This document shows, piece by piece, positions 57,001-63,000 of a stretch of 64,000 bases of DNA. Origin of the DNA: an uncultured Spirochaetota bacterium (GTDB lineage: Bacteria > Spirochaetota > UBA4802 > UBA5550); assembly GCA_963827275.1 (NCBI GenBank), contig CAWHAA010000005.1:736001-800000 (forward strand), given 5' to 3'. The position numbers were made by a program. Numbering within the stretch: position 1 is the first letter of the stretch; each line of letters begins with the position of its first letter.

Positions 57001-60000
57001 GCGGGGACTTCCTCGATCTCGAACTGCTGGGCATTCCGTATCACCTCGTCGACCAGGAAGTTCAGCGCGAACGATATCTCGGGCGGGTACACGACCGTGT
57101 GGGTATACCCGGTCTGGACAGCCCGCTCCTCGATCATCAGGAGCTTGATGAAAGCGGCAAAGAGCCCGGACCCCGCTCGCTTCTGCTCGGCCATCAGCGC
57201 GTCAAAGGTCTTCAGGCCGAGGTATATGGAAGGTGTCTCTTTCCAGGGAGGCCCCTGCCCCACGTGGGAAATCACCGTGGTTTCGTTCGATATGTGGAAG
57301 AGCGTTGGAACGCCGGGGAGCTCTTTCACGATGACGAAGCGCCGGCCGATGATGCTGTCAAAATCGCCCGCGGCAACTGCCCGGTGGGCGAAGACGATCG
57401 ACGCGATGAGGCGGGACGAAAGCCGTATATCGCTCATGAGGCGGCCCCGCACGGTCTGGTCGCCCTTTGACAGCGCCTCGAACGCGCTGTTCCGCATGTC
57501 GATGAAGCGCTCGCGGAAGAACTCCGGCAGGTCGCCGGCGCGGATGCTCCGGACGATGTCGCCGTCGAGGTAAAACTCGAAGCAGCGGTTGTCCGCGAAG
57601 GCCCGCGCGATCCCCTCCTTTACGATTTTATCCGAAAGGAGGTGCTCATCGGTTATGCGAAAACGGCACAGGCTGCTTGATATGACCGGTTCCAATTATT
57701 CGATACCTCTCCCGTTTTCACTATATCCCGCCTCTATTGAGCGTCAATCGAAAAAACAAATATTCAAAATGCACAGGGAGGGGATTGCAGGACGGCCCCG
57801 CCATCACCCCCCGTGCCGCCGGCCACATTCCCCTATTTTATGTTTGACTTATTCCCTTGGTAATGATTAACAAGGGCTCTGGAGGCATGCCATGAAAAAT
57901 CATATTATACTACTGGCCGTGCTCGCGGCACTGCTGGCGCACCCGGCATGTAAAAAAAAGCCCGGGCAGGAACTTGGCGTAACAGTTCAGTTTTCGGCCG
58001 GTGATGTCCGGATTGTAACCGCCGCCGGGGAAAAGGCCGCGGTACCGGGGGACATCATAACATTTGACGACAGCATCGTTACCGGCGCATCATCGGTCGT
58101 TGATCTTAATTTCGGCACCCGGGGTGTAATCAGGATCGTTGAGAACTCCAGGGTCACGATGGCCGCGCTCAGGGGACCTTCAGGAAACGAGCAGGCGCAA
58201 TTTGAAATGAAAACCGGAAAAGTAGTGGTGATTATGTCAAAGCTGTCAAAGGAGTCCGGCTTCAGCATCATAACGCCGACAACGCTCGCCGCGATCAGAG
58301 GGACCTCTTTCATGGTCGTATCTGATCCTACAAGTTCAAAAATTTATGTTCTAAAGGGAAGGATCCTTGTCCAGCTCGCGAAAGAGGGGAAACTGGCCGA
58401 GAATATCGAAAAAATCCTGGACGCGAACAAGAAAGTCGTTGTGAGCGAAGATCTCGTTAACCAGATCATCGCAGGAAAAAAAGAGATTGAAGTGGCGGCA
58501 TTGACCCCGAAAGAGATATCGGATATCAAAGAAGAAATTAAAGACATAAAAACAAGCGACACGCTTGACCCGGAAGCCCGGAAGGAATTGAACGAGATAA
58601 TCAGTGCCGAGGCAACACCTGAGGCGATCAAGAATAAAAAGCAGGAGACGAAGAATAAAGACATTCAGGCTATTCCTTCTTTGTAATGGTCTCTTTACCG
58701 GAATGTATCTCACTAATGGGGGGATTCTATGAAACTATCATCGACGGCATCAGCGGCGTGTATCGCCGGATTTTTGCTGTTAGCGCTCTCCCTGCCGCTC
58801 CATGCGGCGGCGCAGCAAAAGCAGCCTGCAAAGCAACAAAAGCTGTACCAGGTCAAGAAAGCCAGGCCCGCCGCGGACGGCGATCGCCAGTGGCATATAA
58901 GCGCCGGCTTCAGGGTCGGGTGCTTCTGGTGGCAGCCGGTATGGCAGAAGTACGTGGCCAATGAGTTCGGGAACGGGGTGGACAACTTCAAGTACCGGAT
59001 GGGCCCAAACGCCATTTTCGGCCCCATGCTGAGTTTTACTTTCAACAAGCAGTGGAGCCTCTCCTGGAGTTTTCAATATGGCCGGTATGACGCGAAGGCA
59101 CGCGCCCTGATCTATTTCTCAGGGCTCCTCGTCCCGGGGAACATACATTTCAAGGTCGATAAGATGGACAGCGACCTGCTGGCCCTGGTGACCCTGACAA
59201 AATATGCAAAGCTTTTTTTCGGTCCCCGGTACCAGGGATACCAGTATAACGAAAAGTTCCTTCTCATCAAGTCAACACCGGTAAAATACCACTCCCTCTC
59301 TCTGGGGGTAGGCGCCGCTTTCACGGTGCCGCTCGGCGCAAGCTTCTACTTCCTGCCGAACATCTCCCTGGTTGGCCTTGTCGGCTGGGAGGAGTTCAAC
59401 CCGTTGAAAATATCGTATACGCTTGATAGCGACGCCAGGATATCCGGCGCCCTGGGCTTCAACGCCAATGTGGACTTCGGCTATTTCGTCGTACCTGCCA
59501 GCGTCACGATCACGCTCGGGTTCCGCGTACAGTACCTTCATTATCTGCAGAAGGCGCGGGAATCCTACGGGAACGACGCCGATATCTTTTTCGGACCGAG
59601 CCTTGCCGTTGTTTATACGTATTGATCCCGGGTGGCAGTGTTCAGGGGGGGCAGAGCAATTCAGGGCCGATAGTTATCGGTGATTCCCGGGGTCAGAGCA
59701 ACCACCCCACCGATAGTTATCGGTGATTTCCCGGGGTCAGAGCAACCACCCCACCGATAGTTATCGGTGATTTCCCGGGGCCAGAGCAACCACCCCACCG
59801 ATAGTTATCGGTGATTTCCCGGGGCCAGAGCAACCACCCCACCGATAGTTATCGGTGATTTCCAGGGGCCAGAGCAACCACCCCACCGATAGTTATCGGT
59901 GATTTCCCGGGGCCAGAGCAACCACCCCACCGATAGTTATCGGTGATTTCCAGGGGCCAGAGCAACCACCCCACCGATAGTTATCGGTGATTTCCAGGGG

Positions 60001-63000
60001 CCAGAGCAACCACCCCACCGATAGTTATCGGTGATTTCCAGGGGTCAGAGCAACCACCCCACCGATAGTTATCGGTGATTTCCAGGGGCCAGAGCAAAAA
60101 TAGACTGAAAGTACTCACACAATTTCCACTTTTAGCTTTTTACAGGGTGACAAGGGACACTGAATCGTTTTTCGGATCAAACAGACTATCAATGGCCGAG
60201 CGGCTGGTATGCATTTTTTAGCCATCAATGTTTTTGTCATGTGGCCGCTTCTCATGGCATGCTCAAGCTGATGGACAATGACCTGTTTATGGCTACCGCT
60301 TCAGTAGATTCGAGTATGCCTTCGTCCTTGAGAAAACCATTGAAATAAAAAAATTTAAGCCCTCTGTCCATCGCTTTTTGTGTTAGAAAGGGCTTTATCT
60401 GAAAAGTAGCCGGTGCTGATAAAACGCGTTGTGTCCCCCGGGCCTTTTTTCGGAGAGGACGTAATTTCTTAGATAATAATGACAACAAAAAGGCTGTGAG
60501 CCTTTTTTATTTTTTATTTCAATACATATACATTAAATGAATTCATAAAATCAATGTAATCCAACAATGGTCCTGAAATAATATTTTTTCCGGCAATAAT
60601 GAATGTGTGACTTTAATATAAACGTATATATATGATCAGTCGAGAAAATCTTCAATTTTGATCAGGTGGCAGTTCGGGAAATACGCGCGGGAGGTCACAG
60701 GACTCCACCGATGCGGCGTCCCGTGACAGGCCCGCACGGAGTTTAGAAGAGGTACGCTGCCGATACGGTTACACCGCCAAGCTGGTCGAAGAGCGTGGTG
60801 TAGTTCCCGAAATATTCGCGCGGGTCTTGCGTGATTAAGGCAAAGGTCATTAACTGGTAACGACCGCCCACTGACAGGATTATGTTCGCCGGCTCGATGA
60901 GATACGACAGCACCACCTCTTCTATACTCTTGAACCCGAGGTGTACGTTCGTTTTTCTCGCCTCAAACTGGACGTTCCTTTGCAGGGTGCCTGCCATTAC
61001 ATAGAGAGAAAGCTTTAAATCCAGCGTGAGGTTCTTCGCCAGCTCAAACCCGAGGTTGAAACCAAACCCGGGCCCGCAGTCATACTGAAACGAGCGGAGC
61101 GAACCCTTCATCGGGACCTCGATCGGCAGTACCGGCACAAAGCTTATGATCGCGTTGTATCCGCCGAAAAATTTGTTCACATCCACGTTCGCCGCGATAA
61201 ATATGTCCACATATTTGTTCATCTTTTTGTATGCCCGCAGGTCGGCGTCATACTTTTCGATACGGGAGGCCGTGGTCCGCGCGAGATGGAGGCCGGTCAG
61301 GCCGAGCGTCAGGTTGTCCGACGAGAGTGAGAACTGGTTGTGCAGCGCCATCAGGAGCGTGAAGGAAAGTTTCCATGATTCCGTGGCCTGCCAGGTAAGC
61401 ACCGGTCCATACAGGGCGCTGGAATCCTTCATTGAAAAGGTGGACCTGATCGGCATTTTCCGGTCTTGCTGCTTAAAGTAATTTTTGGCAAAAGGGTTCC
61501 ACCAGCCATACATGGCAATGGCGCCGACGCTGACGTCGCCCACCGCGGCGTTTGCAGTCGCGCTCCAGGTGGAAATAGCACATGTGAAAACAAGGACAAC
61601 GAGAAATAAATGAGATATTTTTTTCATGCCTGTACTCCTGCGGTGTAGTTATACCATCATATCGCCTTATGAAAACGAAAAGTCAATCGTTTCTCTTTTT
61701 TATAAAACTTATTATTCGGGAATCGTTATAGAAACACAATGACGGTTTCATGAAAAACATGCTACTCCGCATTATCTATCTATTGATCATGGCATTGTGT
61801 CCGTTAACCGCGGCGCGGGCCGCGGCGGCGGAACCGCTGGATGCCACACTTGTCTCCAAAAACATCAGCGGCACGGTCGAATATATCGAGGACCGGGGGC
61901 GCTGCCGGCGTGACGAATTACTGATATCAGGAATCTGCTTTCATAAAACCCTTGCCTGTCAGGCACCTTCTTCTTTTAATGTCCAAGAATTTCATACACC
62001 TGCAGCATGTTCAATAATAAATAATATTTCACGAAAAGCAGCTCCCGGAACACGAGGACCTTCCCGGATTGTTATTTATAAATATTTAATTATATCAGAA
62101 CGCAGTGTGAGTAATTGCCAATAATACATCACAGGAGGGTATAATTATATCCTTGGCTCCTCGCCGACGGTCCGGATCGGCGGCAACATCCAGAACTACA
62201 AATACCGGATATCGCACAAGGTCGGCATTGGCACCGAGTATCTGGCGCACAAAATGGTGCTCCTGAGCGCCGGCCTTTCCTACGAGACACAGGAAGTATA
62301 CCCCTATGCGCAGAATATCTTTGACCCCAGCCTCTGCAATCTTGGCGTGGGACTCGGCGGGAAAATCATCATCAATGAGATGATCAGCCTGGAGCTCGCT
62401 GTCGCGCGGTATTTCTTCATCCCGGCCCGCGCTCAGTTTGAGCTTGTCAAGATGACCAAGAGCATCACGAATTTCGGCATCGGCATCACGGTGAAGACCC
62501 TGTAAGGTCCTTTCCCGGCGCTCTTTGTGTCAGAAAGGGCTTTATCTAAAAGGAGCTGGTGCTGATAAAACGCATTGTGTCCCCCGGGCAGGCACCCGGG
62601 AGGGGATAGAATCCTGTATAATGACCTTCCCGGCGCCCCTGCCTTGCGGCAGGGCCCCCGGGAAGGTCGAAGTCACGGATACGCCGTTGATCTCCGGGCT
62701 GAACTCCTCACCCGGCTTCGAGAGGCAATCAATACCCCATCGTTTTCAGCTCGCTGACAACATCAACATAGAAGCCGGGAGCGTCAAAACCGGGAGTGAT
62801 GCCGAACAGCTGGTTGACCTCTTCGAGATGGTCAACCCCGTTGGACCACCACGCGCCGGTGAGTTCGCCGCGCCATTTCCCGAGCCTGGCGCTTGCAATG
62901 GAAACCAGGCCGTCGTTATCGCCCGCGCCCATGAGGTTCATAATCACCCAGAGAGGCGACATCAGGTCAAGGCCTGCATATTTGATCTTGCCACCCCATG

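Follow-up and report, generated by a model that had tools for sequence, protein, structure and literature searches.

A tandem array in a Spirochaetota genome read as a composite of two short repeats, one linked to RAYT-like transposase units and one a candidate protein site

What kind of repeat makes up the tandem array at positions 59667..60097 (plus strand) of the window, the 64,000-nucleotide stretch of an uncultured Spirochaetota genome analysed here (C5:736001-800000; contig-to-window offset 736000)? The initial annotation had placed this array at C5:795667-796097, and it is real: TRF finds period 44, 9.8 copies and 98% matches, corresponding to ten units of 43-44 nt. Read along the plus strand, each unit consists of module A (CCGATAGTTATCGGTG), a linker, module B (GGGG[T/C]CAGAGCAA) and a second linker. 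The ten A copies start at 59667 (the first copy, 59667..59682), 59710, 59754, 59798, 59842, 59886, 59930, 59974, 60018 and 60062; all have the GT-centre orientation and are followed by TG. CCGATARYTATCGG occurs ten times in the window, against a mean of 0 in 100 shuffles. The first internal B copy (GGGGTCAGAGCAA) lies at 59689..59701 and the last (GGGGCCAGAGCAA) at 60085-60097, both on the plus strand. Directly ahead of the first A, on the same strand, a degenerate B with one mismatch (GGGGGGGCAGAGCAA, 59645..59659) was recognized in the left flank; thus, the array can be written as B-(A-B)x10. Variants of the unit (ccc or cca in the linker, T or C in B) are grouped in blocks, as local duplication predicts. 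A CRISPR array was considered and rejected: the whole 44-nt unit is repeated at 98% identity and there are no unique spacers. The 43/44-nt unit is two independent short modules joined together, not one new element. We give roughly even chances to the full reading of the feature, a tandem array grown by local amplification of a composite two-repeat unit in which B is RAYT-linked and A is a candidate protein site.

Genome-wide, both the 145 copies of the palindrome and the uneven spread over the contigs that the initial annotation reported were reproduced identically, so that the contig bias of the repeats exists. The 14 other centre dinucleotides occur 0-1 times each, and the reversed control 0 times. 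With a 200-nt join we obtained 65 clusters rather than 66; the 31 clusters with two or more units agree with the earlier figure, and those with at least three number 20 instead of 19. Orientation is uniform in 28 of the 31 multi-unit clusters and A is inverted in just three, in keeping with the proposed head-to-tail spread rather than inverted REPIN pairs. Likewise recovered were the 139 occurrences of GGGTCAGAGYAA in the genome and the distribution of exact A, which all 16 of 16 congeners carry (5-129 copies), as do 8 of 47 genomes from other genera (reversed control 0-1); the repeat family is, as had been claimed, limited to a spirochaete lineage. The description of A as a perfect palindrome has to be corrected, since its 6-bp arms enclose an asymmetric GT/AC centre, and its conserved core is an oriented 13-16-mer, GATAGTTATCGGT(A). 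About 13 single A copies inside genes resemble chance coding matches (e.g., P-I-V-I-G). The suspicion of a mixed bin was justified for only some of the repeat-free contigs: C3 and C11 (97 kb) are contaminants from a related species, whereas C2 (the origin region) and C6 belong to the same genome and are genuine repeat deserts. Such deserts are known for REP-type repeats (PMC2718517).

Module B, GGGGTCAGAGYAA (TTRCTCTGACCCC in the gene-strand form), is the terminal motif of mobile units of about 0.9 kb that carry RAYT-like Y1 transposase genes. Among the main-clade Y1 loci of this genome and 11 congeners, TTRCTCTGAC[CA]C lies 70-100 nt 5' of the ATG at all 15 loci with upstream sequence, and a second copy, oriented alike, follows 165-270 nt 3' of the stop codon at 14 of 16; of the two remaining downstream flanks, one has a copy with one mismatch and one is without it. 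Two units, C1:83049-83941 and C4:514674-515567, are 99% identical, and their homology stops at the two B motifs; the orthologous sites of the C4 locus in G032 and of the C1 locus in G047 are empty and lack B. Five genomes have no RAYT-like protein, and four of these have 0 copies of B and one a single copy. The link of RAYT-type Y1 genes to the GGTCAGAG motif, drawn in the initial annotation, is therefore borne out, B flanking five of the six genes.

The enzyme of these units is a RAYT-like (TIRYT / TnpA-Y1 class 2) HUH tyrosine transposase. The translations contain HFH and Y-M-A-Y-N-P, that is, the class-2 Y1 motifs HuH and Y---NP, and match PF01797 with 37-48 bits (cut-off 23). With NF047646, five genes score 64-77 bits (below the cut-off of 80) and the sixth 94.5, and the IS200-type model NF033573 gives 26-36 bits (below the cut-off of 55). 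PF01797 is the only Pfam match of the RAYT-like proteins at E <=0.01, and a C-terminal extension of 55 aa is present. Five copies of the RAYT-like gene occur here and 1-12 matches per genome in relatives. GGGGTCAG, present in both flanks of the Y1 genes, matches GGGGWSAS, the flanking motif of TIRYT/TIRtron elements in the available parts of PMC3733652 and PMC6006769. The flanking B motifs are direct in the main clade (the same 14 of 16 loci), inverted flanks being restricted to the C10 copy and to certain loci in other genera. The sixth RAYT alone is accompanied by GTAG-type hairpin repeats, which are local to it. B itself is not palindromic and has no covarying stem (mean best stem 3.29 vs 3.29 in the control), inspection by eye showed no conserved hairpin in the flanking sequences of the 16 Y1 loci, and the orientation of B relative to GC skew is 54:32 only. 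Presumably, single-stranded B serves as the recognition and cleavage site of the enzyme, which would thereby scatter solo B copies.

The most likely role of module A is that of a DNA site for a lineage-specific family of putative DNA-binding proteins of about 150 aa, predicted to resemble F TraY with its single-chain double ribbon-helix-helix (RHH) fold. We infer binding of these proteins to A from co-occurrence, embedding and the predicted fold. As to co-occurrence, the RHH-like family is present in 24 of 24 genomes with at least two core copies, and none of the 39 genomes that lack the family has at least two. The RHH-bearing genera may, however, represent one clade, so that the co-occurrence could be one historical event. 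As to embedding, the A core in sense orientation (ACC GAT AAC TAT C, encoding T-D-N-Y) is found at nt 321-381 of the coding region in nine of the ten paralogues of this genome and inside the coding sequence in 11 of the 12 best family members, from 12 species. At 58 codons the residue is the same in eight or more of nine genes; only seven of these use a single codon, and three consecutive ones are ACC-GAT-AAC. In the DNA alignment of the ten paralogues, the longest stretch without variation is CCGATAAC. In three of the ten, a core also lies 45-114 nt upstream of the gene. These frozen codons could have an RNA role or another DNA role.

The predicted structure of the RHH-like protein (pLDDT 73.5) has the elements E2-8, H9-22, H26-40, E62-68, H71-84 and H88-105, so that the model contains two beta-alpha-alpha units in one chain, a predicted RHH pseudo-dimer. 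Residues 1-103 of the model match chain 9f0y_G of the F relaxosome with Z 10.8 and an rmsd of 2.2 A over 94 aligned residues; the match of the model to AvtR has Z 8.2. We read the 9f0y chain as TraY because the available text of PMC12117103 describes three TraY molecules in the F relaxosome, TraY being a single-polypeptide RHH dimer. The asymmetry of A is what a single-chain pseudo-dimer would call for: of 109 units, 103 have T at position +14, but only 51 have A at position -1. The exact 14-mer lies beside only one of the ten paralogues, no gene family is enriched beside the A clusters, and copy number and gene number are decoupled (21 gene matches and 1 core in G030, 5 genes and 75 cores in G004).

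Alternatively, A may be an orphan REP-like hairpin that belonged to a lost or other transposase or that hitch-hikes, the genic core being coincidental or an old in-frame insertion and the proteins non-binding. We consider this unlikely, although several observations would fit it. The single-stranded array unit folds into a hairpin (stem 7 bp, loop 4 nt, -9.5 kcal/mol, z -4.0), copy numbers among congeners vary over the range given above, and orthologous sites are polymorphic for presence and absence. In G004, A lies beside other short palindromic repeats at 7 and 11 of 41 sites, and both in-frame genic REPs and transposase-less orphan REPs of the CGTC type are on record in the accessible portion of PMC3733652. 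However, conservation does not follow the stem: positions 1-2 vary freely whereas their pairing partners 13-14 do not, and none of 87 two-change variants is compensatory. The genic core is moreover the most conserved DNA of the protein family, and even G029, G015 and G016, with almost no intergenic A family (13-14 cores vs 7-12 genes), retain it, and the predicted single-chain fold implies an asymmetric site.

The initial annotation had taken the 43-nt unit as one REP, a palindrome with a GGGGTCAGAG tag, mobilised by RAYT and spreading as direct tandem arrays. A short tag beside a hairpin is a known REP pattern in the part of PMC3733652 that was available. Besides the B motifs at the Y1 genes, 92 of 187 relaxed B matches lie <=60 nt from A, and composite units match in 12 of 16 congeners. 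Nevertheless, the modules behave separately, and we regard the single REP as improbable. In the 65 A clusters, B has the same orientation as A in 20, the opposite in 12, both in 3, and is missing in 30. A-only arrays of period 22 occur at C7:112685 (eight copies) and C9:26041 (ten copies), and B-only arrays of period 20-21 at C9:135904 and C1:81055. The 400-500 nt around each of the six Y1 genes contain no A. Of the 64 genomes of the family, 25 have A, 57 have B and 59 have the RAYT-like protein. G004 has 84 copies of A, 0 of B and no PF01797 match, G010 has 47 copies of A, and B numbers 0-2 across the two; conversely, G001, G020 and G005 have 18-37 copies of B each and 0 of A. These separate distributions contradict the one-REP model.

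The two independent modules are spaced rather constantly. With one weight per cluster, the gap between A and B measures 8-13 nt in about 23 of 28 cases on the downstream side and in about 24 of 31 on the upstream side, whichever way B points; at most independent loci the distance is 8-12 nt. This constancy could stem from two ancestral composite units rather than from enforcement. The ends of the arrays obey no rule: among 21 A+B arrays, B stands on both sides in 7, on one side in 11 and on neither in 3. Linkers are uniform inside one array and different between arrays. In our reading, A and B come to sit 8-12 nt apart in either orientation, perhaps through targeted insertion or selection, and the pair is then multiplied in place via slippage or unequal recombination; in-place multiplication we infer from the blocks of variants and from the linkers.

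The neighbourhood is consistent with such growth, which is local and lineage-specific. The array lies between two convergent genes: an upstream gene of 298 aa (58729..59625, plus strand), without a Pfam family, whose stop codon is 41 nt 5' of the array, and its downstream paralogue of 294 aa (60743..61627, minus strand). Between the array and the latter, at 60349..60480, there is also a copy of a third dispersed repeat family, unrelated to A and B, with 12 further copies on C1, C2, C5 and C8 and members in other species. The array is absent after the orthologues of the upstream gene in seven of seven congeners; these genes end at the same place. At C8:202245, A is shared with G034, which has one extra 43-nt A-B period, and is missing in six species. 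Clean intergenic arrays lie in 12 convergent, 12 tandem and 4 divergent spacers, while convergent spacers make up just 18% of all spacers, and each of the six largest arrays occupies a convergent spacer. The arrays stand directly 3' of stop codons, ahead of terminator-like hairpins. They settle mainly in spacers between convergent genes, 3' of stop codons, where they would probably be co-transcribed with little harm.

The same positions, and periods of 22 and 43-44 nt, that is, about two and four helical turns, would also suit operator or roadblock arrays that regulate or terminate their neighbours and are selected locus by locus, and A at C7:142612 is kept in G034. We find this quite improbable, since periods of 37-39, 42 and 46 nt occur too, the array of the window is missing at the seven orthologous loci, neighbouring genes are unrelated between loci, and array sizes differ widely. 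An assembly or long-read artefact is scarcely credible: although no short-read contig from four other studies spans the array, so that the copy number of ten is as assembled, both of its junctions with the flanks are crossed by contigs from three of these (X1, X4, X6; X5 covers the right junction alone), and the family comprises 145 copies at 65 places and extends to 24 other genomes.

Among known systems, the B units resemble the TIRYT/TIRtron elements (Di Nocera et al. 2013, PMC3733652), which correspond to TnpA-Y1 subclass 2.1 (Quentin et al. 2018, PMC6006769). As far as the available parts of these papers describe them, the likeness comprises a RAYT-like Y1 gene with the HuH and Y---NP motifs, a non-REP flanking motif (GGGGWSAS / GGGG[AT][CG]A[CG]) at fixed distances, which is also a moderately abundant dispersed family with dimers and clusters, and several diverged copies per genome. 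By the same parts, our elements differ in that the main-clade flanking motifs are direct rather than terminal inverted. The C-terminal HTH (Bac_DnaA_C, HTH_23, HTH_28) of those elements is not among the Pfam matches here. Furthermore, the present elements occur in Spirochaetota and show signs of recent mobility or conversion (the 99% pair and the empty sites in relatives). With IS200/IS605 elements they share the Y1 HUH enzyme, both ends of the same polarity on one strand, and no target duplication seen; however, the low NF033573 scores, the same motif at both ends and no subterminal hairpins by eye set them apart.

REP/RAYT systems, REPINs and BIMEs are the subject of Bertels & Rainey 2011 (PMC3116915) and reportedly also of work by Nunvar in 2010 and Ton-Hoang in 2012 (PMC3333891). 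As in these systems, short intergenic repeats are tied to a class-2 Y1 enzyme, enriched between convergent genes and found in ordered tandem arrays, as in SBW25, where two REP families are interleaved (12 + 12 copies). In contrast, A and B have no GTAG- or CGTC-tagged hairpin, A being a 4-6-bp inverted core whose stem is not co-conserved; the RAYT-like gene is multi-copy with direct flanks, not single-copy with inverted repeats; a second module (A) is tied to no transposase; and the inverted doublets of REPINs are rare.

VirC2 and other RHH accessory factors of HUH relaxases are also among the nearest known systems for A. The closest comparison is the F TraY/oriT relaxosome, from which the present system differs in having no conjugation genes, in the sequence identity of the RHH-like proteins (about 12%), in their extra C-terminal beta-hairpin domain, in their 10-22 chromosomal paralogues, and in that A occurs also in G004, where no Y1 gene was found. 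The two share a single-chain double-RHH fold, predicted here. According to the available part of PMC12117103, TraY binds trains of direct and inverted subsites beside the cut site of an HUH enzyme; here, A, the candidate site, likewise lies in trains, with an HUH enzyme's motif about 10 nt away.

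In the present study, we found that the feature at window 59667-60097 is a head-to-tail array with a period of 44, 9.8 copies and 98% matches, and that CCGATARYTATCGG occurs 10 times in the window versus 0 times in 100 shuffles. The two variable positions of the array occur in blocks, which fits duplication of resident units. Both junctions are crossed by short-read contigs from three other studies, none of which spans the array, and a search of Rfam with window 58500-61000 (E up to 1) gave nothing relevant. The array is flanked by convergent paralogues without a Pfam family (window 58729-59625, plus strand, and 60743-61627, minus strand), preceded by a gene with a FecR domain (57892-58686). 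Window 60349-60480 is a copy of a third dispersed repeat (~100-130 nt), which recurs at 12 other places on contigs C1, C2, C5 and C8 and is also present in genomes of the same genus (congeners). The coordinate offset of the initial annotation was off by 9,976, the window being C5:736001-800000, and its genome-wide counts were reproduced: the exact 14-mer has 145 copies (C1 21, C4 22, C5 62, C7 15, C8 7, C9 10 and C10 8) and is absent from C2, C3, C6 and C11. We count 65 clusters, of which 31 have at least two units, with uniform orientation in 28 of the 31. Only AC and GT occur as centres, each of the 14 other centres having 0-1 copies.

The 43-nt unit had been taken as a single REP, which was not borne out. 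It consists of the near-palindromic motif with the GT/AC centre (module A) and a second motif (module B; GGGGTCAGAGYAA, also written TTACTCTGACCCC), and the two vary independently in orientation, in arrays and in genome distribution. When the A copies were oriented by the GT centre, B had the same orientation in 20 of the 65 A clusters and the opposite one in 12, was mixed in 3, and was missing from 30. There are arrays of A only with a period of 22 (C7:112685, 8 units; C9:26041, 10 units) and arrays of B only with a period of 20-21 (C9:135904 and C1:81055). A survey of the family (64 genomes) found exact A in 25, B in 57 and a RAYT-like protein in 59. For example, G004, a genome of the family that is 89% complete, has 84 A, 0 B and no match to PF01797, and three others (G001, G005 and G020) have 18-37 B and 0 A. 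Linkers are uniform within one array and different between arrays, and most independent loci have A and B 8-13 nt apart, in either orientation. The array is a locally amplified composite, and the fixed spacing of A and B may reflect an interaction or a targeting rule. Cassette-like insertion from B to B was considered for the arrays and gave no rule, since of 21 arrays 7 are bounded by B on both sides, 11 on one side and 3 on none. In G004, A sits among two other short palindromic repeats, and in the 92 kb sampled around its A sites (loci L232-L251 and L007) the spacers are BIME-like mosaics with 13 copies of GGTGCCAGACACC and 25 of GGGGATATATCCCC-like sequences. A B variant and GGTGCCAGACACC have 9 nt in common, and thus the two may be remotely related.

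Module A is oriented, not symmetric. Of the 109 distinct intergenic units, 103 have T at position +14 and 73 have A at +15, while only 51 have A at the mirror position -1. Another 75 intergenic copies keep GATAGTTATCGGT while their first two bases vary, and none of the 87 double variants of A is compensatory. Thus, the conserved feature of A is not a stem, and a hairpin as its main constraint was rejected. No gene family was found to be enriched beside the A clusters among 102 flanking proteins.

What A does accompany, both physically and by genome distribution, is a family of ~150-aa proteins with a predicted single-chain double ribbon-helix-helix fold (RHH-like). This link was traced from the loci of G004 and from near-exact copies of the core of A. 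Four G004 loci have a common small gene with A inside its 3' part, and the best relative of this gene in the present genome has the single A of C7:142612 at a distance of 98 nt. The present genome has 10 RHH-like paralogues, the C4:490124-490573 gene among them; in 9 of the ten the core lies at coding nt 321-381 in the sense form ACC GAT AAC TAT C (T-D-N-Y), and an extra core is located 45-114 nt upstream of three of the ten. A gene-internal core was found in 11 of the 12 best members, one from each of 12 species, and ACCGATAACTATC occupies the T-D-N-Y position in all four members read of a set of 19 loci, the four being from G029, another genome of the family. In an ungapped comparison of nine genes of nine species, 58 codons had a residue conserved in at least eight of the nine. 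Only 7 of these use a single codon throughout, and three of the seven are the consecutive ACC-GAT-AAC, contrary to the preference for A/T-ending codons in these genes, which are AT-rich (GC 35-43% versus 56% for the genome). When the ten paralogues are aligned as DNA, no invariant run is longer than CCGATAAC. Furthermore, the RHH-like family is present in 25 of the 64 genomes, including all 24 that have at least two copies of the 13-nt core, and none of the 39 genomes without the family has more than one copy. The core count of G015, G016 and G029 (13-14) is close to their gene count (7-12), and thus the gene-internal site looks primary; the intergenic A family looks like a later expansion in the genus of the present genome (g1), G004, G006 and G010. 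We infer that the RHH-like proteins bind A.

The relatives of the RHH-like family are all hypothetical proteins of Spirochaetota metagenome-assembled genomes, a few with PF07878. For a member from the present genome, Pfam and NCBIfam gave no family or only a partial match of 16.6 bits, and a sequence search of the PDB gave designed repeat proteins only. This called for a fold search. The AlphaFold model (pLDDT 73.5) has two predicted beta-alpha-alpha units and a C-terminal beta-hairpin, and for its residues 1-103 the top matches are F-plasmid relaxosome chains (Z 10.8, rmsd 2.2 A, 94 residues aligned), followed by AvtR (Z 8.2) and DndE (Z 7.3). No conserved neighbours of the 10 RHH-like genes were found with crude gene calls, which missed most of these AT-rich genes.

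The link to RAYT transposases suggested in the initial annotation stood for B, which flanks the RAYT-like genes, and failed for A. The genome has six PF01797 (Y1) genes, five of which encode RAYT-like proteins of ~199 aa with HFH and Y---NP, scoring 64-77 bits against NF047646 (cut-off 80); A was found near none of these five. In a survey of the flanks of 16 main-clade loci from the present genome and 11 congeners, the complement of B, TTRCTCTGAC[CA]C, lies 70-100 nt before the ATG in all 15 loci with upstream sequence and again, in the same orientation, 165-270 nt past the stop codon in 14 of the 16. The C10 copy has inverted flanks, as have some loci of other genera when the results for B and for the proteins are read against each other. 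Two copies of ~0.9 kb (C1:83049-83941 and C4:514674-515567) are 99% identical, and their homology is bounded by both B motifs; the RAYT-like protein of the C4 copy is encoded at C4:514852-515448. At the C4 site, the unit is present in G034, the closest relative, and missing from G032; at the C1 site, it is present in G041 and G038 and missing from G047. Neither empty site has B; thus B belongs to the mobile unit and was not there beforehand as its target. B lies at the ends of these RAYT-like units, and the Y1 enzyme presumably acts on it. A stem around B (TCAGAGYAA) was rejected, as the mean length of the best flanking stem hardly differed from that of cross-locus controls (3.29 versus 3.29 for B with A, 2.65 versus 2.53 for solo B). 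The replication-strand bias of B is weak (54:32), and none was found for A. The sixth Y1 gene (C4:639930) scores 94.5 bits, above the NF047646 cut-off, and has arrays of a separate 22-nt GTAG-type hairpin repeat on either side (~14 copies; C4:639587-640423 and 645434-645448). This repeat is found almost nowhere else in the genome and is not dispersed; the locus represents a classical REPtron that lacks a dispersed REP family. The RHH-like and RAYT-like genes, both AT-rich, are preceded by a T-run and then an invariant TTCGTAT(A) box, which lies ~30-50 nt from the start codon and was also seen at C8:202200; the box may be a promoter type common to both families.

By our own crude gene calls, 12 of the clean intergenic arrays lie in convergent, 12 in tandem and 4 in divergent spacers. 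Just 18% of spacers are convergent, and every one of the six largest arrays lies in one of these. The array at C5:553372 has a stop codon on one side and a terminator-like hairpin on the other. In none of seven congeners does the window array follow the orthologous gene; one of them has a single A ~210 nt away. The A at C7:142612 is common to the present genome and G034, as is that at C8:202245, where G034 has one extra 43-nt period and six species have no A. At C8:202245 of the present genome, A overlaps a minus-strand frame at its 3' end, where the frame reads V-T-D-N-Y-R-stop, and in species without A a loosely similar CCGATNTTATAGA is seen at the same place (loci L193-L204). An insertion footprint was sought by comparing the C4:110091 spacer with contig C11, and the sequences were too diverged.

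The four contigs without the repeat had raised the suspicion of a mixed bin, which was justified for C3 and C11 and unfounded for C2 and C6. C3 (49 kb) and C11 (48 kb) are contaminants that derive from a related organism. Of the 78 proteins they encode, 45 match full-length homologues in the remainder of the bin (50-90% identity), and C11 runs collinear with C4:65-122 kb. C2 and C6 are part of the present genome: internal homologues are less frequent there (12%) than on the other contigs (15-18%), and both have other dispersed repeats and near-identical segments in common with C4, C5, C8 and C10. They have no A, B, Y1 genes or RHH-like genes. None of the 91 merged A/B loci of the nine genuine contigs lies in C2 and C6, which make up 16.2% (P ~1e-7 under uniform placement), and the next largest gap is 193 kb. 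On C2, dnaA (C2:79541-80026) lies at a minus-to-plus switch of GC skew (near 75-100 kb), and this region is likely the origin; C6 has the opposite switch near the contig end (near 275 kb), a possible terminus. The origin-proximal 340 kb are free of A/B repeats. In P. fluorescens SBW25, repeat deserts have been described before (PMC2718517). Between the contig ends C6:5-7604 and C10:485837-493422, 2.8 kb are shared at 98.8% and another 4.8 kb at 82%, and C6:66104-67284 and C5:51165-52344 have in common a 1.2-kb segment that is 99.7% identical; these matches may represent scaffolding links or an insertion sequence. In practical terms, the bin includes two contaminant contigs.

Few non-coding elements of bacteria are as common as REP-type repeats, which are usually read as a single hairpin handled by one domesticated transposase; to our knowledge, reports of them come almost exclusively from Proteobacteria and Cyanobacteria. 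In this spirochaete lineage, the Y1 gene is still found in a bounded unit with direct-repeat ends and an occupancy that varies between species, a short repeat family tracks a DNA-binding protein family and not a transposase, and the two modules are regularly joined at a fixed distance. One conceivable explanation, by analogy, is that the A-B unit works like a miniature origin of transfer, with an RHH accessory protein beside an HUH cut site. A TraY-like chromosomal double-RHH protein would dock on A and bend or open the DNA, the RAYT-like HUH enzyme would then cut B, held about one helical turn from A, and trains of A-B units would be made and moved by the pair. The fold match and the A-B spacing fit this explanation, but A thrives in G004 without any Y1 gene, and we regard it as unlikely. 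If true, a REP/RAYT-type enzyme would for the first time have an accessory DNA-binding partner, and it would be explained why REP-like repeats can consist of a "docking" and a "cutting" module. As for the two separate modules, if the link between protein and site holds, it offers a testable route to the recognition and amplification of such repeats. "REP families" derived from k-mer counts can be composites, and should be treated with caution.

No description of the A motif or of an RHH partner of RAYTs was found in the main texts of the literature searched, the species list of CGTC repeats for Spirochaetes being placed in a figure or in supplementary material. Earlier papers describe tandem REP arrays, interleaved REP families and repeat deserts. 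The closest likeness concerns TIRYT genes, which a passage of Quentin et al. (PMC6006769) equates with TnpA-Y1 subclass 2.1, and whose flanking repeats have the motif GGGGWSAS according to a passage of Di Nocera et al. (PMC3733652). GGGGTCAG of the present genome fits GGGGWSAS. The present system can be placed with the TIRYT and REP systems, from which it differs in its direct-repeat ends, in its new phylum-level setting, and in that its second module follows a DNA-binding protein family.
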